Virus record (IMG/VR): IMGVR_UViG_3300029286_002355
Span: 64,001-128,000 of that record
DNA length: 64,000 nucleotides
Reading direction: 5' to 3' (one strand)
From: a virus
Each line of letters starts with the position of its first letter. Position 1 is the first letter of the stretch. The notes under the pieces are model-generated. The model was not told where the DNA came from. It saw nothing but the letters and a program-made list of their open reading frames with translations, and searched no databases. Shown one piece after another: positions 5,560-60,111 of this stretch. The translations under genes were made by a program, and so were the position numbers.

Positions 5560-5584
5560 AATCGCCTCTCAATTTATAAAGAAT

Positions 5585-5613: not shown

Positions 5614-5618
5614 TACAT

Positions 5619-6701: not shown

Positions 6702-6702
6702 G

Positions 6703-7566: not shown

Positions 7567-7584
7567 AATTCCCTCGTTTCTTTA

Positions 7585-7624: not shown

Positions 7625-7639
7625 CAACATAGTTTTTGC

Positions 7640-9403: not shown

Positions 9404-9450
9404 ATCTATACCCCTTTCTTTGTTACTACTATTATTGTTTGTTTATTTAC

Positions 9451-10218
9451 CTATGCTGTTGCTTCTATCTTTTGACGTTCTACAGGCTTAGACTCCGCTG
9501 TAGCTTCGGGAGCTTGAACCCCAATAGAAGCTTTCTGCTTGTACTCATTGAACAGAGCCCTACCACGTGCTTTTCGAGCGTCCTGTTGCATCCTGATATT
9601 TGCACCCATTTCTTTTGCAAGATCCATCGTTGCTGTCATTTGACCTTGCCCCTGAACAGACGCTTCACGCATCCTCTGTAATGCGGAAGCTGCTTCTCCA
9701 CCCACCATCCCTTGAAGCTCCGTAATAGATGCCTTCATCATTTGAGCAACCGATTCCATGTTTCTTGAGACTCGAACCTGAGCCTTAAGAGACATAAACT
9801 GTCGTTCGAGCTTTTGAATCTGACGAAGAGATTCCGCAATGATTTCGGTGTTCTGCTTATAGCTTGCGTTAAGCGTTTCCAGTTGTTCTTGGTTGGTTTT
9901 TAATTCACCTTCAAGGTTTGCCAACTCTTCCGCATAAATAGAACCGTTAGCCTCATCGTTCTCTTTTATAGCCAACTCAATCAAACGCTTAAACTCGTCT
10001 TGCTTATTGGTTTGATCCTTAATTTGCATTCTGAGAAGGATAATCGTAGATTGCAACTGACCATTGGCATAATGAGCCTTGTCAGCTTTCACCTTCTCTT
10101 CCCGCAAACTCTTCTCAACAACCGCTTCGTTCATGGCGTCTGTTTCTGTAGATTTCTCTATCCACAAACCCAAAGCCGCAAATACTCTTGCCAATGCCCT
10201 TCTAATGCTATCGAACAT
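9451..10218 (-). CDS. pspA: PspA/IM30 (ESCRT-III superfamily) protein
   Basis: N-terminal amphipathic helix MFDSIRRALARVF, ~255 aa all-helical coiled coil, A-rich PspA-like pattern. Confidence 0.75.
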   Translation of the reverse strand: MFDSIRRALARVFAALGLWIEKSTETDAMNEAVVEKSLREEKVKADKAHYANGQLQSTIILLRMQIKDQTNKQDEFKRLIELAIKENDEANGSIYAEELANLEGELKTNQEQLETLNASYKQNTEIIAESLRQIQKLERQFMSLKAQVRVSRNMESVAQMMKASITELQGMVGGEAASALQRMREASVQGQGQMTATMDLAKEMGANIRMQQDARKARGRALFNEYKQKASIGVQAPEATAESKPVERQKIEATA

Positions 10219-10247
10219 AATTAACTCCTTTCTTTATTGTTTGATAC

Positions 10248-10275
10248 ATTCTATCAGGTTTACAAAAAAATGCAA
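10248..10275 (-). promoter_or_regulatory. Sigma70-type promoter TTGCAT-16-TAGAAT with TGn extension
   Basis: Upstream of the pspA-like gene, followed by AGGAG RBS. Confidence 0.55.
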
Positions 10276-10287
10276 GTAAAATCGTAA

Positions 10288-10995
10288 TCAATCTTCTCGC
10301 TCCAAAAGAATCTTCTCTTTTAGAATGAAATCAAATTTTTCGTTCAACTCCTTTTCATTCGAAGCACCAACAACTGTAGCCCCACGATCCTGAACCGCTT
10401 TGAACAAACCAGCATCAATATCAAAAGCTACAAAATGAATTCCGTTTTTAATTCCTTCTTTTGACAAACCATCCATGATAGCATCGGGAGATGGGCCGGC
10501 GTTTGATCCACCATCCGTAAGAACCATAATATGTTTGGCTGGAGCATTTTTTATAATCGCAAGTTGATCAGAAGCAAGCTTGATAGCATTTCCAAGGGGA
10601 GTACCACCATCGGGAGAAGGAACTTTCCACTTCTTAATAACTTCAGATGCTTTTTTGTTATTATTCGCAATCCCAAATCCCTCATAAAGGACTCTGCCAT
10701 GATTAAGCAGAACAAGGCCAAGACCAATAGCACGATTCTTAGACATAGAAAGATATTGATCTAATCTGTTCCCAATTGATTCCAGAGCCCGACGAGAAAT
10801 GGCATCCTTACTTTCGTCTACACCTTTGTCATTTTTAACCGATTGTGCCATACTGCCAGAACCATCCCAAACAATATAGATAGCAATATTGTCTGTCTCC
10901 ACAGGAAGATCTACGGTTTTAACAGGGGCGGGAACAGAACCCGAACAACCTGCCACCATAACCATTATTGCTGCCAACACTATTGATCTTTTCAT
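10288..10995 (-). CDS. vWA-domain lipoprotein
   Basis: Lipobox VAG-C17; MIDAS DGSGS, GGTPL, VLTDG. Confidence 0.88.
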   Translation of the reverse strand: MKRSIVLAAIMVMVAGCSGSVPAPVKTVDLPVETDNIAIYIVWDGSGSMAQSVKNDKGVDESKDAISRRALESIGNRLDQYLSMSKNRAIGLGLVLLNHGRVLYEGFGIANNNKKASEVIKKWKVPSPDGGTPLGNAIKLASDQLAIIKNAPAKHIMVLTDGGSNAGPSPDAIMDGLSKEGIKNGIHFVAFDIDAGLFKAVQDRGATVVGASNEKELNEKFDFILKEKILLERED

Positions 10996-11019
10996 TATTT
11001 CTCCTTTTCTATGTTTTTT

Positions 11020-12198
11020 CTACGAATCCAACGACTTACCGAAACATTCCCAATTAGTCACTCTAATTGCTTCTGGATCACCCATTACTTTTCCCTTATC
11101 ATCCGATGTTTTAACAACGGGGATTCCATTAATACTCCACAGTTTAATAACCATATTAAGAGCAGGAGAATTTGGAAAATCATTGGTAAAGAAGGTTCCA
11201 ATCCCAAACGAGCAATTAATTACATCCCTGCAATATCTTGAAATATCAACCGCTTTTCTGCAATCCAAGGCGTTACTAAAGATGATCGTTTTTGTCAAAG
11301 GATTAATCTTCATCTTTTTATAGTGCGCAACAATCTTGTCTGTAAACTCCATTTCGTTACCAGAATCGCATCGGACACCATCAAAAAGCTTAGCATAACG
11401 AAGATCGAAATCCTTAAGGAAGAGATCGGTTCCAAGTGTATCGGTAAGAGCAATACCCAAATTTCCGCCATAGACTTTAACCCAGTTTTCCATCCCGAAG
11501 AGGTTGCTATGACGAATTCCAAATAGGGCTTGCATGGCCTGATACCACTCATGGGCCTGAGTTCCTTTGGGAGTCATATTGTTTTGATACGATAGATAAA
11601 CATTGCTCGTACCAACAAACCGATTGAATGGCTTCATGTTTTCAACAACCATAGCCTGAGCCAAAAAGTCTTTACGTCTACGGGTTCCAAAATCTGTAGT
11701 GATGCAGTTCCAATCCTGAAGCTGATTCATTTTTTCTTTAGCCCTATCTGCTTCTCCAACTCTATTCCAATTAGTATCAATAATTTTGAAATAAAGTTCC
11801 GAAACGGTTGCCATCAGCTTAACTTCCCACAAAACCGTTTCGCACCAAGGGCCTTCGATATCAATAACTAAATTTTTCTCTTCATTGAGGGAAATCTTAA
11901 CCTGTTTAGGATTATAGCGGTAATTTCTGAGATAGTCAAAATACCAAGGCTTAAGATATGGGCAAGTCTTACGATACCATTCGATTTCGGATTCACTAAT
12001 GGCAAATAGCGGGAAAAAGGTGGAAACTTGATATTGCAATGCCTTAAGGAATTCTTCGTTGAATCTTTGTTTGCCCCTGTTGATAAAACGATAATGTGCA
12101 ATAGCATCGGGAAACAGTTCAAGAATTGCGGCTTGCATTGAAAACTTGTACTGATCGTCGTCAAGCATTGAACGGATTATTGTTTCATTTGTATTCAT
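11020..12198 (-). CDS. pncB: Nicotinate phosphoribosyltransferase
   Basis: DDDQYKFSMQ, DFGTRRR, GTSNV, GTQAHEW, LTDT, GVRCDSG, FGIGT. Confidence 0.93.
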   Translation of the reverse strand: MNTNETIIRSMLDDDQYKFSMQAAILELFPDAIAHYRFINRGKQRFNEEFLKALQYQVSTFFPLFAISESEIEWYRKTCPYLKPWYFDYLRNYRYNPKQVKISLNEEKNLVIDIEGPWCETVLWEVKLMATVSELYFKIIDTNWNRVGEADRAKEKMNQLQDWNCITTDFGTRRRKDFLAQAMVVENMKPFNRFVGTSNVYLSYQNNMTPKGTQAHEWYQAMQALFGIRHSNLFGMENWVKVYGGNLGIALTDTLGTDLFLKDFDLRYAKLFDGVRCDSGNEMEFTDKIVAHYKKMKINPLTKTIIFSNALDCRKAVDISRYCRDVINCSFGIGTFFTNDFPNSPALNMVIKLWSINGIPVVKTSDDKGKVMGDPEAIRVTNWECFGKSLDS

Positions 12199-12242
12199 TT
12201 TTTCTCCAATGCTAAATTACTTTTTCAATCTTTAATGCAGCC

Positions 12243-12270
12243 ATTGTAACAGATTAGCGGATAAAGTCAA
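12243..12270 (-). promoter_or_regulatory. Sigma70-type promoter TTGACT-16-TACAAT
   Basis: Upstream of pncB; near-identical copy at 29376..29403. Confidence 0.7.
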
Positions 12271-12288
12271 GAACTGTTTTCAACTATT

Positions 12289-12708
12289 TTATTTATTTTT
12301 TACCAACCTAAAATATAGCTTTTCTATTTTTTTAATAAAATCTTCCATAGAATTATCCCACTTTAGACAATTACACTGGAAACAACATGGTACTATATTG
12401 CCCTTAATATATCCCTTATTGCTATCCATTCTATCGATACCTTGATATTTGATTTCTTTTCTAAACTCTTTGCTTTCACCAAATAGAACAAAAGTATTAC
12501 TTGGACCATCCCCGCAATAATGACAATTTTTATACATAATTTCTCTTACATCTTTTTTGGATAATTGAAGGGGAAACCCTTTTGTCCTTGCCCTTTGTCT
12601 TAGCCCGTTAAACATTCTTTTAATTACCTTGCTGTCTGCGTAATCTTGGTCTTCGTATTTTTCTTGATAACGAACAACAGCCCGTTCAATCATGCCACAA
12701 CTTCTGCA
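12289..12708 (-). pseudogene. HNH homing endonuclease, C-terminal part (gene interrupted by IS)
   Basis: CHYCG, GIDRMDSNKGY, NIVPCCFQCN; in-frame CRSCG directly abuts the IS right end. Confidence 0.85.
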
Positions 12709-12713
12709 ATGAA

Positions 12714-13910
12714 CTACCCAGACACTAAAGATGTCTGGGTTTCTATAGGATAGTTCCTACCCTTTTGAAATCCCATATTGGTTAATGCAAAGTCTTTAAC
12801 GTTCTTGGAAGCATTAACGTCTCTATCATGCTCCGAACCACACTTCTTACATTTCCATACTCTTTCATCTAATGTGAGTTCGTGATAGACTTCTCCACAA
12901 ACATTACAAGTCTTGCTGGACGGTTCAAATCTTCCTATCTTTAGAAAATTCTTACCATACCAATCGGACTTGTACTGAAGCATTCGGGTTAAATTGAACC
13001 AACCTAAATCTCCTATAATTCTGTTTGTAGGTGCTTGATTTTGACTCTGCATGTTTTTAATAGATAAGTCTTCAATACAAATCGTCTCTACTTGGTTATC
13101 GTGAGTCAATTTGTGTGATAGTTTATCTAAGAAATCTTTCCTTTGTCTTGCTATTTTTGCGTGTAACTTACTTATTTGCTCCTTCTTTGATATATGTTTT
13201 GTTGAACCCTTTGTTAGTAACTCTAGTTCTTGCTGATGTTTTGCTAGTTTATCTTGAGATTGCCTGAAGTATTTTGGTGATTCGATTTTATCTCCGTTTG
13301 AAATCGTCAAGAACATTTTAACACCAAAGTCTATTCCAACGGTCGTACTTTCTTCAACCGCTGGCTTCTTAGGAAACTCTATATTTTGTTCTACCAATAT
13401 TGAGGCATAATACTTTCCGTCATTTCCTCTTGAAACAGTGCATTGTTTAATATTCCCTTCAAAAGCTCTATCAAATATGCACTTCAATCTATTATCCCTA
13501 TTCTTGGTTTTAATGAACTTCGGGAGGTAAAGACGATTGTTCTCAAAATCTGGTCTAATGGAGTTAGCTTCAGGACAACAGAACGATTGCTTGTTATTCT
13601 TTCTTGACTTAAATTTAGGGAATCCCATGTTAGAACGGAAGAAGTTGGTATATGCGTTGTCAAGATTTCTGATAGTTGCTTGTAACGATTGACTGCCTAT
13701 TTCGTCTAGCCATTCATGTTCTTTTTTTAGTTCTATAAGGCTATTAGCTAAATCTACCCATCCAATAGTTTTTTTAGTTTCCTTGTAGTGAGTAATCTTC
13801 TTTTGAAGGAAGTGATTATAGATGAATCGACAGGAGCCAAAGTGTTTTTCAAGCAAAACTCTTTGTCCTTTATTTGGATACAATCTATATTTGTAAGCTA
13901 GTAATTTCAT
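12714..13910 (-). CDS. tnpB: TnpB RNA-guided endonuclease
   Basis: AYKYRLYP HTH, RuvC-I VGIDFG, RuvC-II CIEDL, Zn finger CNVCG/CKKCG, RuvC-III DRDVNA. Confidence 0.95.
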   Translation of the reverse strand: MKLLAYKYRLYPNKGQRVLLEKHFGSCRFIYNHFLQKKITHYKETKKTIGWVDLANSLIELKKEHEWLDEIGSQSLQATIRNLDNAYTNFFRSNMGFPKFKSRKNNKQSFCCPEANSIRPDFENNRLYLPKFIKTKNRDNRLKCIFDRAFEGNIKQCTVSRGNDGKYYASILVEQNIEFPKKPAVEESTTVGIDFGVKMFLTISNGDKIESPKYFRQSQDKLAKHQQELELLTKGSTKHISKKEQISKLHAKIARQRKDFLDKLSHKLTHDNQVETICIEDLSIKNMQSQNQAPTNRIIGDLGWFNLTRMLQYKSDWYGKNFLKIGRFEPSSKTCNVCGEVYHELTLDERVWKCKKCGSEHDRDVNASKNVKDFALTNMGFQKGRNYPIETQTSLVSG

Positions 13911-25696: not shown

Positions 25697-26839
25697 ATGA
25701 AAGTTCTTAAAACATATAAACTAAAACTTGATGGAGATTTTTCTAACATTTCTTCCGTTTCTAATTCCTATCTCCAAGCTATAAACTGGATGTCTGAAAT
25801 TATATATAACAAACATAAATCTTCTTCAATCAAAGATGTAAAACCTGATAACCCCAATAAACTATCAAAAGAATATTACTCCGTCATTAGAGAAAAATTC
25901 AAGCTGACTAGTCAACTAACACAATCCCTCTTCCGTCATCTTATGGGAACTTATTGGTCTATGAAATCTAATGGAAACTGGGAACTAGCTATATATAAGA
26001 AACCTACTATTCCCGTATGCTGGAAAAGAGATTTTAATGTTTCAAATAGAAATGGACTTACAATCTGGAGAAACAAATTTTCTTATAAATCTAAAGAATT
26101 ACCCACTGGAAGCTGGAAAGATTCTAAAATAAAACTAATCAAAGAACAATGGTATCTTATACTTACAATAGAGCTTGAATCTAAGGAACAAAAAATCGAA
26201 GGAAGCATTATTGGGGTTGACAGAGGAATTAAAAATATTTTAGTTGCCACAAACTTGTCTACAAATAAAACACTATATATAAAGGGAGGAAAGTTAAATC
26301 ACAAGAGAAAGTGCATTAGACAGACTAAAAGTAAAGTTGCTAGTGTTGGTACTCAATCCGCTAAGAGATTATTAAAAAGACTTAGTGGAAAAGAGAAATC
26401 CGTAACACAAGAAATGCTACATATTGCTTCAAAAGAGTTAGTAACATTTGCCGAGTCTCAAAATGCAAAAACAATAGTAATGGAAAAATTAACTCATTAT
26501 CGCAAAAACCAAAAGAACCAAGGAAGGGTATTAAATAGGATGAAGCATTCTTGGCCTTATGCAAAAGCTGGATTCTTTATTGAATATAAGGCATTGGATA
26601 AGGGCATGGAAGTCAAGTATGTAAATCCTAGAGATACTAGTAGAAGTTGTCCTAAATGTGGCAATGTATCGAAAGAGAATAGAAATGGGTTAATGTTCTG
26701 TTGTGTTTCTTGTGGCTATAAAGACAATTCTGATCGTGTTGGAAGTATTAATATTTCTATGCGATCTGTTCTTCTAAGGCAAGCCGAGGAAGAACGAGCC
26801 TCAATCAATAGGCTTAAAGTAACAGAGAGTAATCTTTAG
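25697..26839 (+). CDS. tnpB: TnpB RNA-guided endonuclease
   Basis: IGVDRG, VMEKL, CPKCG/CVSCG, NSDRVGSIN. Confidence 0.9.
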   Translation: MKVLKTYKLKLDGDFSNISSVSNSYLQAINWMSEIIYNKHKSSSIKDVKPDNPNKLSKEYYSVIREKFKLTSQLTQSLFRHLMGTYWSMKSNGNWELAIYKKPTIPVCWKRDFNVSNRNGLTIWRNKFSYKSKELPTGSWKDSKIKLIKEQWYLILTIELESKEQKIEGSIIGVDRGIKNILVATNLSTNKTLYIKGGKLNHKRKCIRQTKSKVASVGTQSAKRLLKRLSGKEKSVTQEMLHIASKELVTFAESQNAKTIVMEKLTHYRKNQKNQGRVLNRMKHSWPYAKAGFFIEYKALDKGMEVKYVNPRDTSRSCPKCGNVSKENRNGLMFCCVSCGYKDNSDRVGSINISMRSVLLRQAEEERASINRLKVTESNL

Positions 26840-47475: not shown

Positions 47476-48075
47476 TCAATTATTTTTTAGACAACATTTT
47501 TTATATTTTAACACCTTACCTGTTCTAGCATCTATTTTCCCACATGGACAAGGATCGTTTCGTCCTGTTTTTTTACCACCCTTTATAGTAAACAATCCTT
47601 TCTTACCATAATCAATAAGGATTTTTCCAGAAAGATGATCCATTTCATGTTGGGCAGCTACAGCCAATAAACCATCATTGTTTTCGCTCTTGATATTTGA
47701 ATAATAGAAGGCAACTGTTTGTTCCCTTAATTTATCATCCTCAAGTAGTTGATATTTTATGATATAGTTGCAAAAACGCTTCGTATCTAAATATATACTA
47801 GGAAAAGACAAACATCCTTCACCATAAAAAACAATTTCATCTTCTGCGCTTACTATCTCTGGGTTAATGAAATGCAGAAATTGACCTTCGCTCCTAAGAA
47901 TAAAAATGCGTTTTGGAATACCAATTTGGATTGCCGATAATCCTATCCCATCGTTGTGCTTAGATAGGGTTTCTTCTAGTTTCTTGATTATATCCTTGGC
48001 TTCTTCTATAGAAGTAACGATTTCAGAAACCGTTCCTTTAAACCTACAAAAATCTGTGTCGTTGTTTTTCATCAT
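47476..48075 (-). CDS. def: Peptide deformylase with C-terminal SEC-C motif
   Basis: GIGLSAIQIG, EGCLS, QHEMDHL; GRNDPCPCG...KYKKCC. Confidence 0.93.
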   Translation of the reverse strand: MMKNNDTDFCRFKGTVSEIVTSIEEAKDIIKKLEETLSKHNDGIGLSAIQIGIPKRIFILRSEGQFLHFINPEIVSAEDEIVFYGEGCLSFPSIYLDTKRFCNYIIKYQLLEDDKLREQTVAFYYSNIKSENNDGLLAVAAQHEMDHLSGKILIDYGKKGLFTIKGGKKTGRNDPCPCGKIDARTGKVLKYKKCCLKNN

Positions 48076-48080
48076 TTATC

Positions 48081-49169
48081 TTATATGTTTATTGGTTTGT
48101 AACTGGCACCGTAGGGACCAGTAAGAAACCGTGACAAAATATTCCTACTTGCATTTATATCTGCGTTGTCAGCATGATCACAACTCTGACAGCGGAATAC
48201 TTCTCCGTCACGATTCTTCTTATCGGCAAGACCACATTTCGGACAGGTAATACTAGTATTGTAAGGAGAGACAGTACGAAAGCTAACACGGTTATCTTCG
48301 CACCTTTGTTCTAGTCTTCCTAACCAGTATTTCCAATTCCAACTGCCGATAGAACGACGAATATTTTTACTCAATCGTCGTTTGAGTTTTGAGTTCTTAC
48401 CCAAATTCTTTAATCCTTCAACCACAATCAAGTCAGGATTCGTTCTAATAACTTCCTTGGCTACTTCATCAATTCTTTGTTTTAAAGCCCTTCTAGCCCT
48501 GTCCTTGCCCTTAGAACCTTGCTTGCATCTCTTGACTCGCTCTATGTTCTGTTTAATATCCTTGCCTAATTGTTGTCCTGTTGAAAGAGAAGCTAAAGCA
48601 TTTATTCCTGTATCAATTCCAATACACTTTTTACCATCTTTCTTTGCTCCTGTTTCCGTTTCAAAAACAAATTGGACATAGTTTTCTGTTATTATGTAGG
48701 AATTGAGTCTTTTTCCTTTAATACAAAGTCTATTATAATGCTTGTGGAATTTGATTGGAATATCCATTGTTATTTTATTACCTACAGAAGCGATATGTAG
48801 CCAAGCATCAAATTGTTTTGCTTCTTTACTATCTTTGAGTTCTGCTATAGTGCAAGAGACATACATTCTTTTGCCTTTATGAACAGGCTTGACTAGTTTA
48901 TTTGGTTGATTCTTCCAACGTTCTTTTGAGGCGGAAATCATATCAAGTGATTCTCTTGCGGCTACTTTTCTTAACCTAGCAGAAAGCCATGTCTGAGGTA
49001 TATCAACAATTGGTTTTAAGAGTTGTGTTTTATCAGTTGGATTAGTCCATAAATAGCCAACAAAGCAATTTACTACCTTTCCATACTCTTGAAGAATGGT
49101 GAGTAGTTCTTGCTTTTTCTTTTGAGTAGCGAATTTAGTGCTACATTTTGTTGACCTTATTATTTTCAT
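48081..49169 (-). CDS. tnpB: TnpB RNA-guided endonuclease (probably IS607-associated)
   Basis: IGIDTG, VVEGL, CPKCG/CQSC, NADINASRN; no IS605-type end hairpins nearby. Confidence 0.9.
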   Translation of the reverse strand: MKIIRSTKCSTKFATQKKKQELLTILQEYGKVVNCFVGYLWTNPTDKTQLLKPIVDIPQTWLSARLRKVAARESLDMISASKERWKNQPNKLVKPVHKGKRMYVSCTIAELKDSKEAKQFDAWLHIASVGNKITMDIPIKFHKHYNRLCIKGKRLNSYIITENYVQFVFETETGAKKDGKKCIGIDTGINALASLSTGQQLGKDIKQNIERVKRCKQGSKGKDRARRALKQRIDEVAKEVIRTNPDLIVVEGLKNLGKNSKLKRRLSKNIRRSIGSWNWKYWLGRLEQRCEDNRVSFRTVSPYNTSITCPKCGLADKKNRDGEVFRCQSCDHADNADINASRNILSRFLTGPYGASYKPINI

Positions 49170-49175
49170 TCTATT
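49165..49175 (-). repeat. AATAGAATGAA direct repeat, tnpB-side copy
   Basis: Identical to 54508..54518. Confidence 0.8.
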
Positions 49176-49705
49176 TTAAGCCCGTCAAGTAATTTCCCAT
49201 CTTTTATCTTTTTTATGGTTTCCAAACATCTTGATTCTGACAAGTAATTGTTAAATGTCTCTCCTTTGGGCAATTTAAGATAATCAAGTGACCCATTTGG
49301 AAATTGTGTTAAAGGAACATGAACTATATTTTTCGCCAACTGCTTAATAATTTCTATGTAATCTTGTTGTGATAGTTTTACGGTCTTATATTTAGTAATA
49401 ACTTTTAGGAGTCTCAATCTGCATTCATTTACGTTATCTCTAAATATATCGCATCCATATATTGTTGATATGGCTTGAACGGGGTGGGCGTGTTTTAGTT
49501 TTCTTTTGAGCACAGGAATTAAGAGTTGACCATTTCCACAGGCGGGGTCTATAATTGTTTTCTCTGGATTGGAGAACAAATCAGGAGAGTATTCTTCCAT
49601 TTTTGAGCACATTTCTTCTGCAAGAAGAAGTGGCGTAAAGCATTCTGCGGATTGCTTACGCCTTTTATCTCTTTTTTCTTCTATTGATTGGTTCTCATTA
49701 TTCAT
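49166..49705 (-). CDS. Short N6-adenine MTase-like protein (SAM-binding half, no NPPY)
   Basis: FTPLLLAEEM, IIDPACGNGQ, IYGCDIFRDNV; catalytic motif IV absent. Confidence 0.8.
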   Translation of the reverse strand: MNNENQSIEEKRDKRRKQSAECFTPLLLAEEMCSKMEEYSPDLFSNPEKTIIDPACGNGQLLIPVLKRKLKHAHPVQAISTIYGCDIFRDNVNECRLRLLKVITKYKTVKLSQQDYIEIIKQLAKNIVHVPLTQFPNGSLDYLKLPKGETFNNYLSESRCLETIKKIKDGKLLDGLKIE

Positions 49706-49709
49706 GGAT

Positions 49710-50450
49710 TTATATTCCGTTATAAATTAAATTGCACTTTTTATTGCAATCAAAAAAGTATGTTTGTAATTTCGATGAACGTAATTTTTCATCGTCTAAT
49801 CTTTTTTGAATTATATTTTGAAAATCCTCTCCTTGATTTACGCCTATTCCCTCAAATCCATTATTTGAATAATACATGTGATATGTGTCAGGAGATAAAT
49901 CCTCTAATTCTAGCGAAGACGTAAAAGAAGCATATGGGATTATTATAAGCCGATATCCATTTATATTTTGATATTTCTTTATCTTAGAGCATATTCCATC
50001 TATCATCTTCTGAACAAGGAATGAGGAATTGGGGCAATAACAGCAAATACTTTCATCTATATTGCCAGTCGCCACTGAATTTTTATCTACAGGCTTCGTA
50101 TTGTGAATTTTCTTGTCGGTTTCATTGTCTAAATTTACAGTAAAACATTCTATAATGACTTTTGCATTATCGTCAACAAAATCAGGAGTCAACCCGCTTA
50201 TATCTTTCTCGTATTCAAGATGTAATTTTTCTTGGTTGATGAAATGTTCTGATATTGACAACTCATTTATAAATTCTAGTCCCTGAATGTTTTTTCTATG
50301 AGATTCTTTTTCTTTACTATTTATTAGCGAAATTAACTTTTTTAGTATCTTTTGTTGAGATGATTGACCAAAATTAGGCAATATCCTTTTTAAGTTTTCT
50401 TTAATGGACGAATTCATTTTTAGTGTATCTATTTCTTCCGTTATATTCAT
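49710..50450 (-). CDS. Putative PD-(D/E)XK nuclease
   Basis: ELSISEH...TPDF...IIECFT. Confidence 0.5.
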   Translation of the reverse strand: MNITEEIDTLKMNSSIKENLKRILPNFGQSSQQKILKKLISLINSKEKESHRKNIQGLEFINELSISEHFINQEKLHLEYEKDISGLTPDFVDDNAKVIIECFTVNLDNETDKKIHNTKPVDKNSVATGNIDESICCYCPNSSFLVQKMIDGICSKIKKYQNINGYRLIIIPYASFTSSLELEDLSPDTYHMYYSNNGFEGIGVNQGEDFQNIIQKRLDDEKLRSSKLQTYFFDCNKKCNLIYNGI

Positions 50451-51613
50451 TTTACAAACTCCTTCCAGAAATCTTTCTTTAAGAATTCAAAAACCTCTGG
50501 TTCAATTGAAAACCCAGACCACTTACAAATATTCATCATCTCTATGAATTTTTCCGACCTTATTGCCGCAATTATGTTTTCGGCTTCTTTTGTGTTATCA
50601 ACTTCTATGGCTATACAGTTGTTTGTCACTCCATATTCGCCTTTTTCATCATAAAAACAGTTTTCTGGACTTGCCTTTCCTAAGATAACTTTCTTCACTC
50701 CGAAATGCCCATCTTTTTTAGAAGAATATAACAAAACAGGTGTCTTACCACATGGCGTAGAGTAAATGCATGGATATAAAAACTTATCATCTTTCTCTTT
50801 AGACATCCAAGGCTTATCGTTTCCATACATTGACCTTGAGTGAATAACCTTTATTCGTTTTTCGCCCTTGATCCCTATACATTTTTCTAGTATTTCAGAA
50901 TGCTTATGGGAAATAAATGGCTTAGAAGACATATCAATTTTTTTAGAAACCCCATCTTCGTCTAAAATTATTGTGCCATTCTTTCTGGCTTTATTTATTA
51001 ATACATACCAGTCATATCTTGTTCCGCATCCAAACGTTTTCTGCCCATCAGACTGATTATGAATTTCCAAATATTCCAATTGCTTATCTTGGAATACGGA
51101 ATATAGAGGGTGATTGGGTTTTCTCCAAGCACTAGGATGAATGAGGGAAATAATTCCTCCATCATTAACAATATTAAATCCCATTTCAACAAATCTTTGC
51201 CAAAGAGATTTGTGCTTATTTTTTGGGTCTTGATAAGGAGGATTTCCTATAACACAATCCCAAGTCCTTATCTCTTTCTTTTCTTGCACCTTCTCAAAGA
51301 AATCAAAAAAGTCATCACTCATAATTTCTACTCCTATTTTTTGTCCAAATTTAGCCTTTTGTTCACAATCTGTGAAGAAACAAATATCTTTAGGATCAAT
51401 CCCTATTTCAACAAGAACTATAGCAATTTCCAAATTCGTAACCAATATCTTTTTGCCCTTTAGTTCACAATACTTGCAAACCTTATCAATCATTTTCTCG
51501 CAAAGATCATAGGGTGTAAAAACATTCTGCAAGTTATTATCAAGAGTTGCCCACTCCTTGAATACTTCTTGATAATACTCTCTAAGAGCCAATTGTTTTG
51601 CTGACAGAATCAT
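50447..51613 (-). CDS. N6-adenine DNA methyltransferase (gamma class) with a degenerate motif I
   Basis: VFTPYDL, DCVIGNPPY, LIHPSAWR; FxGxG replaced by ILVTNLE. Confidence 0.8.
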   Translation of the reverse strand: MILSAKQLALREYYQEVFKEWATLDNNLQNVFTPYDLCEKMIDKVCKYCELKGKKILVTNLEIAIVLVEIGIDPKDICFFTDCEQKAKFGQKIGVEIMSDDFFDFFEKVQEKKEIRTWDCVIGNPPYQDPKNKHKSLWQRFVEMGFNIVNDGGIISLIHPSAWRKPNHPLYSVFQDKQLEYLEIHNQSDGQKTFGCGTRYDWYVLINKARKNGTIILDEDGVSKKIDMSSKPFISHKHSEILEKCIGIKGEKRIKVIHSRSMYGNDKPWMSKEKDDKFLYPCIYSTPCGKTPVLLYSSKKDGHFGVKKVILGKASPENCFYDEKGEYGVTNNCIAIEVDNTKEAENIIAAIRSEKFIEMMNICKWSGFSIEPEVFEFLKKDFWKEFVK

Positions 51614-53823
51614 AACGCAAATTCCTTTCGCAACGCCTCTTTCTCGCTATCCACTTGTTTCCTAAACTCTTCTTGCTTTTTTCTTTCCTCAATTGAAAGA
51701 ATAATACTAAATTCATGCTCAATCTCTTCAGGAACAGTATAGGTCTTTTCAATTCTAGGCGGTGGGACAGTAATCATCTTGCCATCATAGGTTTCCTCAT
51801 TGAATATCTCATAAGGGCAATACCCAATATCGGACTGAATCTGATCCACCATTCTCTCAATATTGTTTCTGTTAATATCGCTAAATCCACAATACTTTGG
51901 CATAATAACATAACAGAATGGCTTATAGAACTTCCCTTTATAGCAATCCGAAGGAACGATCAATCCTTTGGACAATCTTTCTCTATCAAAAGGATGAAGT
52001 CTCATTCCCCTACCCAAAGCCTGACTTGAAGTAATATCACTCATGTCTCCAAAGGGAAGAATAGCATTAATCCCCGGCACATCCCATCCTTCACCTACCA
52101 TTGCAATATGAAGAATAATAGCCTTTTCATCTGGTGCCTTATTCGCCAAATCTTCCATAAATTGATTTATGTTATGGGCATTAGAAGGATATGGCACTCC
52201 GTTTCTGTAAACATTCCAATCACTTGAAACGGCATAAATAGCTACATCGGGCAATTCTTTCTGATAGTTCTTGAAAGTCTTGGATTTAATCGCTTCAGAA
52301 TAAGATTTTCCACCCGGACATCTCACAAGAAGTTTTACTCCATTTGCCTTACTGTTGACAGAATGCTTGTCGTTAATCCTTGCCACTTCTTTCCAAGATT
52401 CCCATATAATGTACGCATTGAGTTCTGCATTTTTTGTAATCTCTTCCTGTGTTGCAGTAGAAATATCAACATGCTTTCTTAAAACCGCTTTGGTAATTGA
52501 CAAATGACACAAGAGAGGTCTTACAATCTTACCCAATTCAATCATTTCTTTTGGACTCTTCCTAGAAATAACTTCTCCAAACAACTCTGTATTATCCATG
52601 CCTTTGCCGTCTACAATAGGTGCATCGGGAGTTCCGCTTAACGCTTGTGTTGCAGTATAAAAGACCGTTAATGGGGAAAGCATCTTGGCTTCTTTAGAAA
52701 TAACCGATTCCCTACTCTTTTGAGGAATACTTCTTCCTTTCACTATATTATGGGCTTCATCGCAGTTAATCAAGTCAAACTTCATTCCTGACTCAATAAT
52801 CTTATAAACTGAATGATATGTTGTGAAAATAAGGGCTAGTCCATTTGAATCATTCACAGCCTTATTTAGTTGTTCTATATTAGTGGTATTTACCACTTCT
52901 TCTATGCCAGTATTCATTCTGGCTAGATTATCATTGTCATAGTCGCCAGAAGTAAAATTAACTACTGTCACGTTATCAATCCCATACTGCTTAAGGCGAT
53001 TGATTATCTTCTTTATTCCTTGCTTTCCAAGAGTAATTCTAGGCGAAACAAAAAGGATTTTAGAATGAGGCTTGTATTTTAATACATCACCAGACAACTC
53101 AATTGAATACTCCATCATAATTTCATTTTTGCCAGTTCCAGTAGGCCAAATAACTTGATATCTACCCTGCTTTTTACTTAGCAATGCCTTAATTGCTTCC
53201 ACTTGGTATGCGTCTGGAACAAAATCCATTGAACATGATAAAACTTCATTGACGGCATTTTCCAAAGATTCCCTATATGCCTTCCAAAAACCAATATTAC
53301 CATCAACCAAAGACTTAATCTCGTTAATTCCGTAAAATTGAGTTTTCTCTGGCAAAACAAAGTTCTTTATAGTGTTTTCATGAATCGCAACAGAATCAGA
53401 AAATATATTGAAAACTTTTTCATCGGCAGACAAATCAAATCCGTCAAGATAGCATGATTGAGAAAAGTATTCAGTAAGTTGACTGTTGCCATCCGTCATA
53501 AACTCTTTGCCATTAAAGGCGAAGAAAGCAGTTACAACCTTGCCATTTCTCTTGCCAAGACCATGAGCCTTATATTTATGATTAATCGAATTAATATTTT
53601 CGTAATCACTTATGCCAATTTTATCTCCAAAATAAAGTATCAATGCTTCCACAAAAGACTGAAAGCCACTCTCAATAAAGTCTTTAGCCGTTTTACTTTC
53701 TAGTGAAAGTTTCCTAAGATTTTGTCCAAATCCGTCAAAGGACAAATCAGAAGGCATCAAATTACCAGCATTAGAGACGCTTCCATTAAGGATTTTGAAT
53801 TTGAATATATGATTTGTTTTCAT
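51610..53823 (-). CDS. SF2 helicase/ATPase of restriction type (Type ISP/III-like)
   Basis: PTGTGK, FTTYHS, CDEAH, YTAT, GEGWDVP, QALGRGMR; likely start 53823 (ATGA overlap). Confidence 0.88.
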   Translation of the reverse strand: MKTNHIFKFKILNGSVSNAGNLMPSDLSFDGFGQNLRKLSLESKTAKDFIESGFQSFVEALILYFGDKIGISDYENINSINHKYKAHGLGKRNGKVVTAFFAFNGKEFMTDGNSQLTEYFSQSCYLDGFDLSADEKVFNIFSDSVAIHENTIKNFVLPEKTQFYGINEIKSLVDGNIGFWKAYRESLENAVNEVLSCSMDFVPDAYQVEAIKALLSKKQGRYQVIWPTGTGKNEIMMEYSIELSGDVLKYKPHSKILFVSPRITLGKQGIKKIINRLKQYGIDNVTVVNFTSGDYDNDNLARMNTGIEEVVNTTNIEQLNKAVNDSNGLALIFTTYHSVYKIIESGMKFDLINCDEAHNIVKGRSIPQKSRESVISKEAKMLSPLTVFYTATQALSGTPDAPIVDGKGMDNTELFGEVISRKSPKEMIELGKIVRPLLCHLSITKAVLRKHVDISTATQEEITKNAELNAYIIWESWKEVARINDKHSVNSKANGVKLLVRCPGGKSYSEAIKSKTFKNYQKELPDVAIYAVSSDWNVYRNGVPYPSNAHNINQFMEDLANKAPDEKAIILHIAMVGEGWDVPGINAILPFGDMSDITSSQALGRGMRLHPFDRERLSKGLIVPSDCYKGKFYKPFCYVIMPKYCGFSDINRNNIERMVDQIQSDIGYCPYEIFNEETYDGKMITVPPPRIEKTYTVPEEIEHEFSIILSIEERKKQEEFRKQVDSEKEALRKEFAL

Positions 53824-54512
53824 GCTTTCACCATTTCGCAAAATGTTTTCCAAAACGTAGGATTGTTGCCACAGACAGACTTCAAAGAACAAACTTCGGT
53901 TGGATCGTTATTTGGAAGATAAATTCCACCAGACTCTTCTTGGGCTATGAATTTCAATCTCCCATGAAAATGTCCACCTAAAGTCATCCAATTTATATCG
54001 TGAGCCAAGGTAAAGACAAACATTTGATCTCTACTTGTGGTTCCAACTCCATATTTTGAAATTGAAGTCCAATGAAAGGTTCTTAACTTTCTTTTAATAT
54101 GATCAAGGGCAGTAGACCAATTGCCATATTTGACCTGAACTGTAATAACTCTTCCGTCTTTTGTCTTGCCTGTTCCGTCCACTCCTACATCTTGATCTTC
54201 CCCGCAAACAGAAAAGAATGGAACATAATTATAAATTCCCCATGTTCTCCCATATCCTTTAAGGACATATTCTGCAAAAACTTCTGTTACGTCACCTTTG
54301 AAAGAATTCGCTCCATCCTCGCCATATTTATCAAAGAAATCAACTTTTTCTGATTTTTCTATAATTCCAACCTGTTTTTCTATTCTGGAAGCAAAACAAG
54401 ACAATGAACTACACTTCTCTAAAAGCACATCCCAACATTTAACCGCAACCTTTCTTGGATGGGTTATCGAAGTTGCCAACATATCATCGTCTAATTGGTT
54501 ATCGTTATTCAT
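53820..54512 (-). CDS. Mrr-like PD-(D/E)XK restriction endonuclease
   Basis: KGDVTEVF...DVGVDG...VQVKY. Confidence 0.75.
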   Translation of the reverse strand: MNNDNQLDDDMLATSITHPRKVAVKCWDVLLEKCSSLSCFASRIEKQVGIIEKSEKVDFFDKYGEDGANSFKGDVTEVFAEYVLKGYGRTWGIYNYVPFFSVCGEDQDVGVDGTGKTKDGRVITVQVKYGNWSTALDHIKRKLRTFHWTSISKYGVGTTSRDQMFVFTLAHDINWMTLGGHFHGRLKFIAQEESGGIYLPNNDPTEVCSLKSVCGNNPTFWKTFCEMVKA

Positions 54513-54518
54513 TCTATT
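54508..54518 (-). repeat. AATAGAATGAA direct repeat, tnpA-side copy
   Basis: Identical to 49165..49175. Confidence 0.8.
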
Positions 54519-55195
54519 CCTTTCTCAATTGTTGGCGTCATCATACCAGAACCATTGAGTAAGTCAAGCTCTTTCTGCAATTTTTTCTCTTTTCTTCGTT
54601 TTGCTGACCTTTTCCCGTAAAGTCGCCCTGAGAAAACAGCCATAAGCATCATAATATCTTGAACTAATTCCTCTTCATCATTAGAAGACGTAGATTCAAC
54701 CTTCTCTATTTCAACACCATAACTATCAAAAAATCTCACTAATACATTAAATTGGAAACGTGTCAATCTATCTTTATGCTCTACAATTACTTTAGATACT
54801 TTCTTCTGAATTACAAGATCAAATAATTTGTTAAATCCACTTCTTGTATCCGACAATCCCGAACCAACATCTTTGATAATGTGTTCAACTCTATACTTCT
54901 TTTTGGCACAGTATTCAGACAATCTTTGACTCTGCCTATCTAAATCTCCTTTTTGTTTCTGTTCATGGCTACTCACTCTAGCATAGGTAGCAACAGGAAG
55001 AAGATTTCTATTTACTTCTTCCTCTTTAATTCCCATGTAAGAATTAATATCGCTCTGCTTATACCTACGATGACCACCTTTTGTTCTAACTGGCTTTAGA
55101 GTTCCATCGGCGTCCCAATTCCTTAAGGTTTCTTGGGATACATTGAGTCTAAGGCAAGTTTCCGCCATACTAAGGAGTTTATCTTTTTCTAGCAT
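54509..55195 (-). CDS. tnpA: IS607-family serine recombinase/transposase TnpA
   Basis: MerR-like HTH TLRNWD..GGHRRY, YARVSS, DVGSGL, EHKDRLTRF, FSGRLYG. Confidence 0.95.
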   Translation of the reverse strand: MLEKDKLLSMAETCLRLNVSQETLRNWDADGTLKPVRTKGGHRRYKQSDINSYMGIKEEEVNRNLLPVATYARVSSHEQKQKGDLDRQSQRLSEYCAKKKYRVEHIIKDVGSGLSDTRSGFNKLFDLVIQKKVSKVIVEHKDRLTRFQFNVLVRFFDSYGVEIEKVESTSSNDEEELVQDIMMLMAVFSGRLYGKRSAKRRKEKKLQKELDLLNGSGMMTPTIEKGIE

Positions 55196-55418
55196 TTCGC
55201 TTCTCCTTTTCTGACTTTTTAATGAATTCAGATATAAGCGACTTGGAATCGTTTATAAATTTTTGGAATTCTTCTAGTGTTGGCTCATATCCCAAATCAA
55301 ACGGAATTGGGTAAATGTCTCCCGTATCTAGTTCAAATTCTGTTTTAGAGACTCTAACGACCTTATGATTTTTATTTTCCATATCTTTAATTATCCTTGC
55401 AAATTTTGATGATTTCAT
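55179..55418 (-). CDS. Small hypothetical protein overlapping the tnpA start
   Basis: 79 aa, AGGAG RBS. Confidence 0.65.
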   Translation of the reverse strand: MKSSKFARIIKDMENKNHKVVRVSKTEFELDTGDIYPIPFDLGYEPTLEEFQKFINDSKSLISEFIKKSEKEKRNARKR

Positions 55419-55433
55419 TTTTCATACTCCTTT

Positions 55434-55459
55434 ATTCTATATTATACTGCGAAATTCCT
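55434..55459 (-). promoter_or_regulatory. Sigma-H-like promoter AGGAATT-12-ATAGAAT
   Basis: Full consensus upstream of the IS607 unit. Confidence 0.7.
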
Positions 55460-55478
55460 GCAAGAAAATGAAAATATT

Positions 55479-55508
55479 TTTTAGGTGTTTGTAGATTTTT
55501 GTAGGTTT
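55479..55508 (-). repeat. Three tandem imperfect 10-bp repeats, candidate IS607 left-end TnpA sites
   Basis: AAACCTACAA AAATCTACAA ACACCTAAAA. Confidence 0.55.
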
Positions 55509-55564
55509 TCATTCAACGGTTGCCAACCCTCTTCAAAAGAGATATGTTTTCGATAATTTCCATA

Positions 55565-56308
55565 TTACACCTCTCTTACTTTTACTTCGTTTGTATATTC
55601 CATAGCTACACTGGCAAGATATTTTATTTCTATATCGTCATATAAAGGAATATTTTTCGCTTTTTTTGACAACATGGTTTTCGTTTTTCTAAAAGGTTGT
55701 AAAATCCACTTTTCTTCCTTCTGCAAAGCCATTCCAATGTACCTAATGGCTTTCTCGTCTACTAGCGAAGGATAAAGTGTGGTTCTAATTTCATAGTTAA
55801 AAGAGTCATGAAAATGTTTTTTAGCCCTTAGTTTCCCTAGGCTTGTAAAAACGCTATCAAAAAGACCCAATTTAGTCTTATTGCCCGTCTTTCCCGCCAA
55901 TAAGTTATCATATCTATCTTTATCCGTTTTGATATCCAACGTAACATAATCCACAAAAGATAAAATCATAGATAGTTTGTTAAATTCTAATCCATTGGTT
56001 GACAGAGCTATTTTGCAACCCCATTTTTTTATTTCATAAACCATAGACATAATTTCAAAGATAGATCTATATAAGGGTTCCCCACCACTTATACCTACCC
56101 ATTTGCAATCGTTTTCTTTTACAAACAGTTTTACTTCATCCAAACTAATATCGGGCTTAATATTTTCCCCCGTAACCAGTCTTGAATTCATGCAATAAGG
56201 GCAGCGTAATTGGCAGTTTCTAAGAAAAACAGAAGGCGCAAAGGCATCTGGCCCTGCTTCACTACTTTTGTTAAAGCCATATATTTTCGGTAACAATTGG
56301 CAAATCAT
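55565..56308 (-). CDS. Radical SAM protein, anaerobic RNR activase (NrdG/PflA-like)
   Basis: CQLRCPYCMN, ISGGEP, LSTNG, DIK, YEIRTT. Confidence 0.85.
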   Translation of the reverse strand: MICQLLPKIYGFNKSSEAGPDAFAPSVFLRNCQLRCPYCMNSRLVTGENIKPDISLDEVKLFVKENDCKWVGISGGEPLYRSIFEIMSMVYEIKKWGCKIALSTNGLEFNKLSMILSFVDYVTLDIKTDKDRYDNLLAGKTGNKTKLGLFDSVFTSLGKLRAKKHFHDSFNYEIRTTLYPSLVDEKAIRYIGMALQKEEKWILQPFRKTKTMLSKKAKNIPLYDDIEIKYLASVAMEYTNEVKVREV

Positions 56309-58794: not shown

Positions 58795-60111
58795 CTACTT
58801 TTTAATATATGGCAACAGTCCTAATACTTCTACTTTTTTTAATTTTTTTACAATAAACTCAAATTTTGCTCCCAACACTTTTTCAACATAGTGTTTTTTA
58901 ATAACAATTCTCCGAAGGTACGACTTCCAAAACTTAAATGTGGAATCAAACCCAGTTACCTCAACATATTTATTTTCTTTTGGAAAATAAAAATCATATC
59001 TACAAGAACCTAACCCTCCATACTTCTTATTGTACGAAAAGTTAATTTTCTGAATTCGATATTGGATATAAAAATAAGCATCAATCATAGACGAGCAAAC
59101 AGTTCCATCGTCTAACATAACCCCATTACAAGACGGACAACCGTTGCCGTCAACTCTTCCCATTATTCTAGCTTTCCATTCAAAGCCACACCTACTGCAT
59201 TTCCACCATACGGATAAATTGCTCCCCCAACTAACATCAAACGGAGTTAATTTTCCATTTTTGGTTGGATGCCATTCTCTTGATAACTCTAGATTTTTAG
59301 ATCCTAATGAGTCACACTTAAAGCAAGACTTTAATCCTTTATTCCTCGCAAGGATTGATGCCAACCATTCGTTTTTACACTTTCCACATTTCCACCATAC
59401 TTTTCTTTTACTGCCATAAGTTACATGATACGGAGTAACACTTCCATTCTTACTGGCATTCCATTCCGAAGCCAGTCTAGGATTTTGAGAGGCTAAACAA
59501 TTACATATGGGGCAAGATTTTTCCAGAACACTCCTCGCTCTAATTTCCGCATCCCATTCGTGTCCGCATTTATTGCATTTCCACCATACTTTTTTACCGG
59601 ATCTATAATCAACATCAAACGGAGTTAATTTTCCATTTTTGGTTGGATGCCATTCTCTTGATAATCCAATTTCTTTTTCCCCCAGAGAATTACACTTAGA
59701 ACATTTTGTTATTCTATTATCTTGTGTTCTTAATAGAGGCGAAGACGCCCATTCATAACCACATTTATTACATTTCCACCATACTTTTTTACCGGATCTA
59801 AGGCTTATTTTATTAGGGGTCAAATCTCCGTTTTTGGTTGGATGCCATTCTTCTGCTAATTCTGGACATTTTTTAGACAAAGAATTATTTTCCGTAATGG
59901 CTCTCCCTATACACGATGGACAATTATAATTTCTAATTCTATTGTTTATTATTGCTTCCCATTCATAACTACACTTATTACATTTCCACCATACTTTTTT
60001 ATTACTTCTATAACAAAAATCCTTTGGAGTCAAATTTCCGTTTTTGGTTGGATGCCACTGCTCTAACAAAGTAGGACAGGAATCGCTTAAGTTTCTATGC
60101 GAATGTTTCAT
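58795..60111 (-). CDS. Zinc-ribbon-repeat putative homing endonuclease
   Basis: Five EWHPTKN/EWNASKN..KVWWKC..C repeats; same C-terminal YDFYFP..EVTGF domain as 16311..17156. Confidence 0.78.
   Translation of the reverse strand: MKHSHRNLSDSCPTLLEQWHPTKNGNLTPKDFCYRSNKKVWWKCNKCSYEWEAIINNRIRNYNCPSCIGRAITENNSLSKKCPELAEEWHPTKNGDLTPNKISLRSGKKVWWKCNKCGYEWASSPLLRTQDNRITKCSKCNSLGEKEIGLSREWHPTKNGKLTPFDVDYRSGKKVWWKCNKCGHEWDAEIRARSVLEKSCPICNCLASQNPRLASEWNASKNGSVTPYHVTYGSKRKVWWKCGKCKNEWLASILARNKGLKSCFKCDSLGSKNLELSREWHPTKNGKLTPFDVSWGSNLSVWWKCSRCGFEWKARIMGRVDGNGCPSCNGVMLDDGTVCSSMIDAYFYIQYRIQKINFSYNKKYGGLGSCRYDFYFPKENKYVEVTGFDSTFKFWKSYLRRIVIKKHYVEKVLGAKFEFIVKKLKKVEVLGLLPYIKK

Follow-up and report, generated by a model that had tools for sequence, protein, structure and literature searches.

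A phage-borne IS607-family transposon that very probably carries a Type ISP-like operon between tnpA and tnpB

The locus described here raises the question of why a serine transposase gene of the IS607 family (tnpA) and the gene of an RNA-guided nuclease (tnpB), which are adjacent or overlapping in classical IS607 elements, are separated on the minus strand by 5.3 kb that hold five genes of the same orientation (c1 to c5), with an identical 11-mer at both junctions. The locus is found in a stretch of 64,000 nucleotides, referred to below as the window, which forms bases 64001-128000 of the IMG/VR virus record IMGVR_UViG_3300029286_002355, a large phage from lake water (186 kb, estimated to be 82% complete) with genes for tail tube, clamp loader, topoisomerase and SbcC proteins. 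The window has a G+C content of approximately 36%, is dense in genes and is coded almost entirely on the minus strand. An initial annotation, made from the letters alone, had described the split gene pair with its 11-mer and proposed an IS607 element turned cargo transposon that mobilizes a restriction-modification (R-M)-like system. The arrangement itself was confirmed by exact repeat search, gene models and the NCBIfam profiles NF033518 and NF040570. As to its nature, positions 48030-55528 (minus strand) very probably represent one intact 7,497-bp IS607-family transposon of a phage-borne lineage carrying Type ISP-like cargo, with the layout left end (LE), orf79, tnpA, 5.3-kb cargo operon, tnpB with overlapping omega-RNA, and right end (RE) (Table 1).

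Both ends of the element were placed by alignment. Upstream of orf79, the 20 aligned loci share a block that reads (A/G)GGG|T, followed by TGaCAACnGTT and two to three AAAAnCTAC repeats, which sets the start in the window at 55529; the three tandem 10-bp repeats listed in the initial annotation are part of this block and are conserved. On the other side, homology among the 3' flanks of 10 TnpB relatives ends right after ...TTTAAAGGAACGG|T, 40-50 nucleotides (nt) past the tnpB stop codon, giving an end point at 48030, within an open reading frame (ORF) annotated as pdf. A motif scan of the interval returned one LE-type and one RE-type motif in the correct polarity. The RE segment 48055-48040 is an inverted 16-nt copy of the LE repeats at 55508-55493, and in lineages with different repeats (L040, L111, L029 and L020) the RE best matches the LE of the same element. 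The window element thus has subterminal repeats at both ends, as IS607 elements do, and these are presumed to bind TnpA. The letters GGT(T) are common to both junctions (55528-55525 and 48031-48028), the left flank reads AGGG and the RE ends in ACGG. Published work on IS607 describes a GG core at both junctions, an xGGG target (TGGG in the Cbo IStron) that is also the transposon-adjacent motif (TAM) of TnpB, and an omega-RNA scaffold ending in ...CGG, with discrimination between self and non-self at position -3 (bioRxiv 10.1101/2023.11.20.567912). The ends of the window element fit this published pattern.

The initial annotation had looked to empty sites for a definition of the ends, and such a site was reconstructed by joining the two flanks. 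The joined segments, 55563-55527 and 48029-47476, form a single 196-residue ORF of peptide deformylase (pdf), with no target duplication. The N-terminus supplied by the orphaned codons, MEIIENISLLKR, aligns to phage pdf homologues free of gaps, the RE-encoded residues MMKNNDTDFCRFKGT require a 4-residue gap, and the Pfam deformylase domain (PF01327, 95 bits) starts at residue 19 and is untouched by the insertion. Because the joined flanks restore a pdf ORF with a homologue-like N-terminus, the element appears to have inserted at codon 12/13 of a phage pdf gene, with the RE supplying a replacement start.

The unit was next compared with 80 loci obtained in a metagenome scan with TnpA, against which the element was run by blastn. 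Homology starts at 55529-55534 in 13 independent contigs and ends at 48026-48029 in 5, and the flanks are unrelated. The same ends with unrelated flanks were seen in loci L058, L059, L060, L061 and L068. Among these, L058 (on a 148-kb contig) contains a cargo-bearing element of 6,937 bp at AAAAGGG|T that lacks c4, includes orf79 and has amino acid identities to the window of 97% (tnpA), 98% (c1), 78% (c2), 55% (c3), 87% (c5) and 97% (tnpB), while L060 and L066 show tnpA-c1-c2 up to the ends of their contigs. At its end segments, the window element matches the DNA of its closest copies (L058-L060) at 91-96% identity, the ends of L058 being at 92-95%, and the helicase/methylase part of L058 reaches at most 81%. 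The DNA around the copies shares only 30-66% protein identity with this phage, at other map positions. Sequencing runs from three other studies (sediment, groundwater and freshwater sediment) cover 47974-55722 at an identity of at least 90% and do not cover the flanks; contigs from these public runs stop at 55529, 55523 and 48020 and bridge the tnpA/c1 junction. Since copies share ends with unrelated flanks and the public runs cover the unit alone, the cargo-bearing unit appears to have moved as a whole between distantly related phages. The proposal of a cargo transposon is therefore supported by mapped ends and by a cargo-bearing copy elsewhere, and a search for this cargo flanked as in the window yielded L058 and, in part, L060 and L066, at other genomic sites. 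A further question, whether this TnpB belongs with this TnpA, was answered in favor of the pairing: at more than 25 independent loci, inside units bounded by LE and RE, a TnpB of this clade is encoded downstream of a TnpA of this clade.

Table 1. Features of the element, its insertion site and other TnpB-like genes of the phage (window positions unless stated otherwise)
Feature	Position	Strand	Description
Orphaned first 12 pdf codons	55528..55563	-	MEIIENISLLKR; start codon 1 nt past radical-SAM stop codon
Left-flank AGGG	55527..55530	-	TAM-like target motif; family consensus just outside LE is RGGG
Left end (LE)	55481..55528	-	core GGT 55528-55526, terminal motif TTGGCAACCGTTG, three tandem 10-bp repeats
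LE repeats	55510-55481	-	AAAAnCTAC type; presumed TnpA binding sites (20-locus alignment, motif scan)
orf79	55179..55418	-	small conserved ORF within the element, 17-nt overlap with tnpA
tnpA	54509..55195	-	IS607 serine transposase; NCBIfam NF033518 205 bits (cut-off 110); PF00239 78 bits
11-mer, left copy	54508..54518	-	AATAGAATGAA; spans tnpA stop / c1 start
c1	53820..54512	-	Mrr-type PD-(D/E)xK nuclease (predicted); motif E...GVDG...TVQxKY; phrog_7683 (function unknown)
c2	51610..53823	-	superfamily 2 (SF2) helicase/translocase (predicted); likely start ATG 53823 (ATGA overlap with c1 stop); PF04851 ResIII 55 bits
c3	50447..51613	-	N6-adenine methyltransferase part (predicted); NPPY; PF07669 Eco57I 40 bits; phrog_3689 DNA methyltransferase
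c4	49710..50450	-	orphan 246-residue ORF; 3 relatives only, 85-92% identity
c5	49166..49705	-	methyltransferase N-terminal half (predicted); FTP motif X, DPACGNG motif I; PF02384 23 bits; PADLOC MTase_II
11-mer, right copy	49165..49175	-	AATAGAATGAA; spans c5 stop / tnpB start
tnpB	48081..49169	-	RNA-guided nuclease; NF040570 103 bits (cut-off 100); PF07282 59 bits
omega-RNA scaffold	48030..48219	-	five helices in last ~120 nt of tnpB ORF (48219-48102), 3' tail ending ...GGAACGG
Right end (RE)	48030..48075	-	ends in family-wide GGAACGG; inverted 16-nt LE-repeat copy; outward ATGATG 48075-48070
Guide-source flank	48010..48029	-	TTTCTGAAATCGTTAC..., pdf codons 13-19; predicted target in element-free pdf allele
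Interrupted pdf body	47476..48029	-	now read from RE-encoded start, 15 new residues MMKNNDTDFCRFKGT; PF01327 95 bits
Further TnpB-like gene	25697-26839	+	
Further TnpB-like gene	12714-13910	-	
Further TnpB-like genes	full record (G000) 11984-12376, 162273-162509, 49-294		

TnpA has a MerR-type helix-turn-helix (HTH) domain at residues 7-54 and a resolvase catalytic domain (PF00239) at residues 69-207. In TnpB, the RuvC triad D186/E251/D337 and the CxxC...CxxC zinc finger are invariant or nearly so across 10 relatives, and the enzyme is thus predicted to be catalytically intact; with 24 bits against a cut-off of 350 in the NCBIfam IS607_TnpB exception model, it belongs to another branch than the TnpB of that model. 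An omega-RNA had been expected near 48081, where tnpB ends, and 24 aligned 3' ends of the gene gave a five-helix fold of 33 pairs, 17 of them with compensatory changes. In this fold 93% of cells are paired (33-45% with slid partners), and its covariation score of 0.47 compares with 0.08-0.11, with 0 of 500 shuffles scoring as high. No Rfam family was found on the element, nor does Rfam hold a model for this omega-RNA; the covarying fold matches what is expected of the omega-RNA scaffold.

Taken together, these features suggest a cycle in two parts: (i) with TnpA bound to the AAAnCTAC repeats of LE and RE, the whole unit would excise as a circle through a crossover at the shared GG(T), with a predicted circle junction in which RE ...AAAGGAACGG is fused to LE TTGGCAACCG..., and insertion would follow at RGGG|T sites without target duplication, in this case at pdf codon 12/13, where the ATG inside the RE would restart pdf and where the empty site is predicted to read ...TTGAAGAGGG fused to TTTCTGAAAT...; and (ii) the pdf flank (from 48029 downwards) would be the source of the guide, TnpB with its omega-RNA would cut element-free pdf alleles beside AGGG, and the whole element, including the cargo, would be copied in as co-infected cells repair the cut by recombination. 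By analogy with published work on TnpB, homing into empty pdf alleles would be expected. The cargo, in turn, would be expressed from the tnpA side as a single operon with translational coupling.

The small ORF that the initial annotation had placed upstream of tnpA is present as orf79, and its homologues lie directly upstream of tnpA in most related loci (tblastn). ORFs of this type (approximately 70-80 residues, core VRVTKTEFELDxGD) were observed between LE and tnpA in L008-L041 and L058-L137. No Pfam, PHROG or NCBIfam family matched orf79, and the nearest Atlas clusters are viral hypothetical proteins; the protein could be a regulator or a directionality factor of the element. A scan for sigma-70 promoters between LE and orf79 gave nothing convincing.

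The outward-facing ATGATG of the RE, which lies 46 nt from the end, shares its frame with pdf in the window (184 codons) and, in L059, L061 and L068, with the ORFs that are interrupted there. The RE of another sub-lineage (among L109, L105 and L081) has the terminal letters ...ATGAACGG|T and continues into ORFs of 515, 130 and 72 codons. The outward start codon may keep the interrupted phage genes expressed. A preference for targets that match the RE frame was considered and rejected: all four sites of the sub-lineage are in frame, yet the p value is only ~0.08, which is not significant, because the phase of the sites is biased by codon usage (8 of 15 share that phase). Across 21 reconstructed empty sites, most insertions are at RGGG|T close to the 5' or 3' end of an ORF with the same orientation, and codon phases 1 and 2 are favored over phase 0, probably due to the rarity of GGG codons in these AT-rich genomes.

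What the element carries can be judged from homology to known enzymes. The initial annotation had five co-oriented, translationally coupled cargo genes, which was borne out by ATGA overlaps at tnpA/c1, c1/c2 (from the ATG at 53823), c2/c3, c3/c4 and c5/tnpB; only c4 and c5 are separated, by 4 nt. The D...QxK catalytic motif of c1 is conserved in all lineages aligned. An AlphaFold model of c1 of moderate confidence (pLDDT 69) matched mostly restriction endonucleases in Foldseek, with EcoO109I, Ecl18kI and EndoMS as the best; these matches were weak (E values from 5e-4), and no sequence match was obtained between c1 and the LlaBIII nuclease. The c2 protein has the motifs GTGK, DEAH, TAT and QxxGRxxR, and a c2 profile searched against the PDB had LlaGI (5ffj, E value 6.5e-19) and LlaBIII (4xqk, E value 2.3e-18) as top matches. 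In c3, motif I for S-adenosylmethionine (AdoMet) binding is degenerate and the C-terminal two-thirds are variable; this part is probably the target-recognition region, given that it is replaced in one sequencing run (X14) and diverged in L058. The intact AdoMet motif I is found only in the separate c5, which lacks the catalytic motif IV (NPPY) and always follows a c3-type gene in relatives. A prediction of a c3-c5 complex gave no verdict (score 0.00) and speaks neither for nor against binding. The order c1, c2, c3, c5 recurs in L023, L055 and L058 and is permuted in L029. From these homologies the cargo is best described as a Type ISP-like R-M system split into separate proteins, which would work like such an enzyme; it was not filed as a member of Type ISP, because that type is defined by a single polypeptide and the cargo consists of four to five ORFs joined by ATGA overlaps.

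Several observations concern individual cargo genes. The first ~200 residues of c2 form a c1-like domain in which the catalytic D/Q/K are replaced (H, F, F), and the helicases of L023, L029 and L055 do not have this N-terminal domain. The domain looks like the product of a duplication followed by inactivation and fusion; a direct BLASTP comparison of c1 with the c2 N-terminus was not significant, and the proposed kinship is based on the match of both to c1-type proteins of L029 and L055. In run X14 (freshwater sediment), the C-terminal two-thirds of c3 (window 50449-51225) are replaced by 817 other letters, and 847 extra letters are found between the helicase and c3 (window 51614-51618). The c4 gene is absent from L058, L023, L029 and L055 and is confined to this sub-lineage; it matched no family in four libraries and nothing in the PDB, and its single-sequence structure model was unusable (pLDDT 38). 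For the cargo helicase, viral contigs scanned with the single sequence and genome contigs scanned with the profile both gave 0 matches, and the profile found only L055-L057 beyond L023 and L029 in viral contigs.

An alternative that retains some weight, and which we consider doubtful rather than negligible, is a cargo without restriction function. Its genes might instead serve phage DNA modification or anti-restriction, or encode a nuclease-helicase for replication or repair accompanied by a methylase, and cut no foreign DNA. This would agree with the position of the four-gene cassette in L055, among phage genes for thymidylate synthase, ClpP and DNA ligase with no insertion sequence, with the PADLOC result (weak, partial matches and no complete known defense system), with the split methylase whose c3 part lacks a good AdoMet motif, and with the presence of a counter-defense gene, Tad3, among the other cargos found between tnpA and tnpB. 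On the other hand, the domain order and the nearest solved relatives match Type ISP restriction enzymes, c1 keeps its catalytic residues in all lineages while the fused second copy has lost them, and the C-terminus of c3 is swapped between close relatives in the manner of R-M target-recognition domains. We therefore prefer the R-M-like reading of the cargo.

The reading of the window as one transposon with R-M-like cargo has to be weighed against the following observations: (i) neither an excised circle nor a natural empty pdf site was seen in assembled contigs, which are unable to show rare forms; (ii) an exact 20-mer over the reconstructed pdf joint had 0 matches in viral contigs; (iii) the cargo of L058 is a mosaic relative to that of the window (c3 at 55%, no c4), so that the two are not simple transposition products of each other; (iv) the cassette is found without IS607 in L055, showing that the link to the transposon is not obligatory; (v) c4 matches no family of assigned function; (vi) the methylase is unusually split, with a degenerate AdoMet motif in c3; and (vii) the restriction and methylation activities of the cargo are predictions from homology. 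With regard to the empty site, the relatives of the flanking genes reach at most 38% identity for pdf and none was found for the radical-SAM gene, meaning that no close sister phage was at hand.

The cassette and the transposon are also seen in other combinations. The same R-M-like cassette occurs in three contexts, namely between tnpA and tnpB (window, L058, L029), between LE and orf79 (L023), and with no IS607 nearby (L055). The L023 locus (5500-12830 of a viral contig) has the cassette between the left end and orf79 and a DUF4238 gene between tnpA and a frameshifted tnpB, an arrangement that appears to give this element two cargo positions. An odd joint in run X13 leads from 54216 back to 49579, with CCGTTCC between and a depth of 2.5, and is probably from a permuted relative like L029.

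A census of 34 distinct tnpA-tnpB junction lineages of this TnpB clade revealed that the interval is usually occupied in this phage IS607 lineage: the two genes are separated by 178-5339 nt in 28 lineages and are overlapping or within 15 nt of each other in the remaining 6. Homology breaks at the TnpA tail (~54564-54585) and exactly at the tnpB ATG. Codons ~211 to 228 of tnpA belong to the exchangeable cargo module, homology to relatives with 89-96% identity stopping at 54564. The interval from tnpA codon ~210 to the tnpB ATG would thus be a slot that holds varied genes, exchanged by recombination between related elements. Its contents include an N6_N4 DNA methylase with an unknown ORF (L068), a 198-residue ORF with a 1051-residue ResIII helicase in an element of 6.0 kb (L025), a GHKL ATPase (L102), the Tad3 Thoeris inhibitor (L079, 1002-1538, Pfam PF25185, 139 bits; also L087), the DUF4238 gene of L023 and, at several loci, small unknown ORFs. 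TnpA and TnpB identities to the window element are discordant in L061 (96% and 60%) and L008 (49% and 82%), which points to module exchange. A wider reading, in which the phage IS607 slot shuttles defense and counter-defense genes, the element acts as a double gene drive and the RE start codons spare the interrupted genes, is offered as a tentative one, possible but short of probable.

The 11-mer AATAGAATGAA, in which the initial annotation had seen the bounds of the cargo, calls for a separate explanation. It occurs exactly twice in the window, both times at the cargo junctions. Among the 54 ATGA-overlap junctions of the 186-kb genome, 5 of 1431 pairs (including this one) share at least 11 nt (p ~0.003), and the repeat therefore exceeds what the ATGA overlap alone explains. 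The repeat is real and statistically unusual; its use as a marker of cargo insertion is not supported. The corresponding explanation would be that the 11-mer is a scar of cargo acquisition, in which the ancestral ATGA overlap of tnpA and tnpB, within ...AATAGAATGAAAAT..., was duplicated on both sides as a cassette entered, for example as a circle by short-homology recombination, the ancestral cargo-free junction then reading GGAATAGAATGAAAATAA. We regard this as unlikely. It would account for the rarity of such sharing (only ~0.3% of ATGA-junction pairs in the genome), for a repeat of 13 nt in L058, for the ATGA overlap as the usual cargo-free junction in the family (L018, L040, L075), for the same 12-mer AATAGAATGAAA at the tnpA/tnpB junction of the distant cargo-free L040, and for the circular permutation of the cassette between L029 and the window, L023 and L055. 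Nevertheless, no allele recombines at the repeat. The joined cargo-free allele that had been predicted does exist in L059, the only close cargo-free copy (TnpA 97%, TnpB 95%), but it is deleted at other points: it retains the TnpA tail that is linked to the cargo, together with the final 62 nt of c5, a remnant that is true coding sequence of c5 with homology to L023 and L029. Because the TnpA tail and the genuine c5 end are retained, L059 appears to be a different internal deletion of a cargo-bearing ancestor. Likewise, the cargo-skipping joints in two runs (X3, X14) span 5355 and 5394 nt rather than 5343, and the one case reported has only 2 shared letters instead of 11; in relatives whose TnpA is 89-96% identical, homology is lost at 54564, a point upstream of the left copy, so that this copy travels with the cargo module; at the junctions of the independent cargo-bearing L029, L025 and L023, no more than 4-5 nt are shared; and AAAATGAAAA accounts for the matches of 9-12 nt seen elsewhere. 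No role of the 11-mer is established, and a mechanistic one is improbable.

That tnpA with LE and tnpB with RE are remnants of two elements flanking a native phage operon is very improbable and largely refuted, for although the phage has six TnpB-like genes and one TnpA, solo tnpB elements being common here, and the TnpA and TnpB identities of L061 and L008 are discordant, the interval has a single LE-type and a single RE-type motif in the right polarity, its RE repeat matches this LE, the same LE...cargo...RE unit occurs in L058 with other flanks while the window flanks join into the pdf ORF, and L029 has the same architecture with another TnpB clade.

The record contains, next to the single IS607 TnpA, five TnpB-like genes besides the tnpB of the element; these have at most 36% identity to it and no TnpA partner, and are regarded as solo TnpB elements or as domesticated copies. 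The phage also encodes, a few genes upstream of the element, a 438-residue protein (window 58795-60111, minus strand) that consists of five DUF4379 treble-clef zinc-finger repeats (Pfam, 312 bits).

Compared with known systems, the element shares with the IS607 family (ISHp607/IS1535; Cbo IStron, bioRxiv 10.1101/2023.11.20.567912; TnpA structures, eLife 2018, PMC6188088) a serine recombinase with a MerR-type HTH, a co-stranded tnpB downstream, the lack of terminal inverted repeats and of target duplication, a GG core, subterminal repeats at both ends, an xGGG target/TAM, a scaffold ending in ...CGG and an omega-RNA overlapping the tnpB 3' end. In addition to the operon between the two genes, it differs from classical IS607 in the conserved orf79 before tnpA and in its residence in phage genomes, and from the IStron in having, instead of a group I intron, an outward start codon in the RE that would restart the interrupted gene. 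Extra genes inside serine-recombinase/TnpB elements have been described by Altae-Tran et al. (PNAS 2023, PMC10691335), who reported that TnpB transposons of the Ser-3 branch carry them "on rare occasions", the genes being for an HTH protein, an RNA helicase, a WhiA-like protein and unknown proteins. That is a one-sentence remark without ends, mobility or phage context, in which we found no mention of R-M or counter-defense cargo, whereas ends, copies at other sites and a variable slot are documented here. Among the papers searched, none was found on a phage IS607 with R-M or counter-defense cargo, nor on an RE-encoded start codon. With the Type ISP enzymes LlaGI and LlaBIII (5ffj, 4xqk), the cargo shares the order of its modules, namely a putative Mrr-type nuclease, an SF2 translocase, a putative N6-adenine methylase with NPPY and a variable, presumed recognition part; those enzymes are single polypeptides of 1,400-1,600 residues, whereas the cargo encodes separate, translationally coupled proteins, with a second, dead nuclease-like domain on the helicase and a methylase distributed over c3 and c5 with an orphan gene between them. 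T4-like homing-endonuclease islands and P2/P4 defense hotspots (PMC13565253; PMC13586616) resemble the element in that a selfish phage nuclease has hitch-hiking neighbors and, for P2/P4-type hotspots, in conserved bounding genes with variable defense and counter-defense content. In contrast to both, the carrier here is a transposon with its own recombinase and defined ends, and its nuclease is RNA-guided.

To conclude, IS607/TnpB elements have usually been seen as minimal two-gene parasites, and published mentions of cargo have remained a rare oddity. In this study, an IS607 element with an R-M-like operon has been delimited to exact ends and appears to have moved between distantly related phages, and its relatives carry other genes of the phage arms race. 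The parts of the system are compact and comprise a TnpB whose omega-RNA is defined and whose presumed TAM is AGGG, a serine transposase that appears to tolerate at least 5 kb of cargo, and a naturally split Type ISP-like enzyme. If the tentative wider reading holds, R-M-like cassettes, methylases, a GHKL ATPase and Tad3 would be shuttled between unrelated phages; TnpB homing and R-M cargo would both penalize element-free genomes in co-infected cells; and the outward RE start codons would be a protein-level counterpart to IStron splicing. RNA-guided IS607 elements would then be a route by which phages trade defense and counter-defense genes, and the element described here would be a naturally occurring TnpB "gene drive" that carries a payload of several kilobases.

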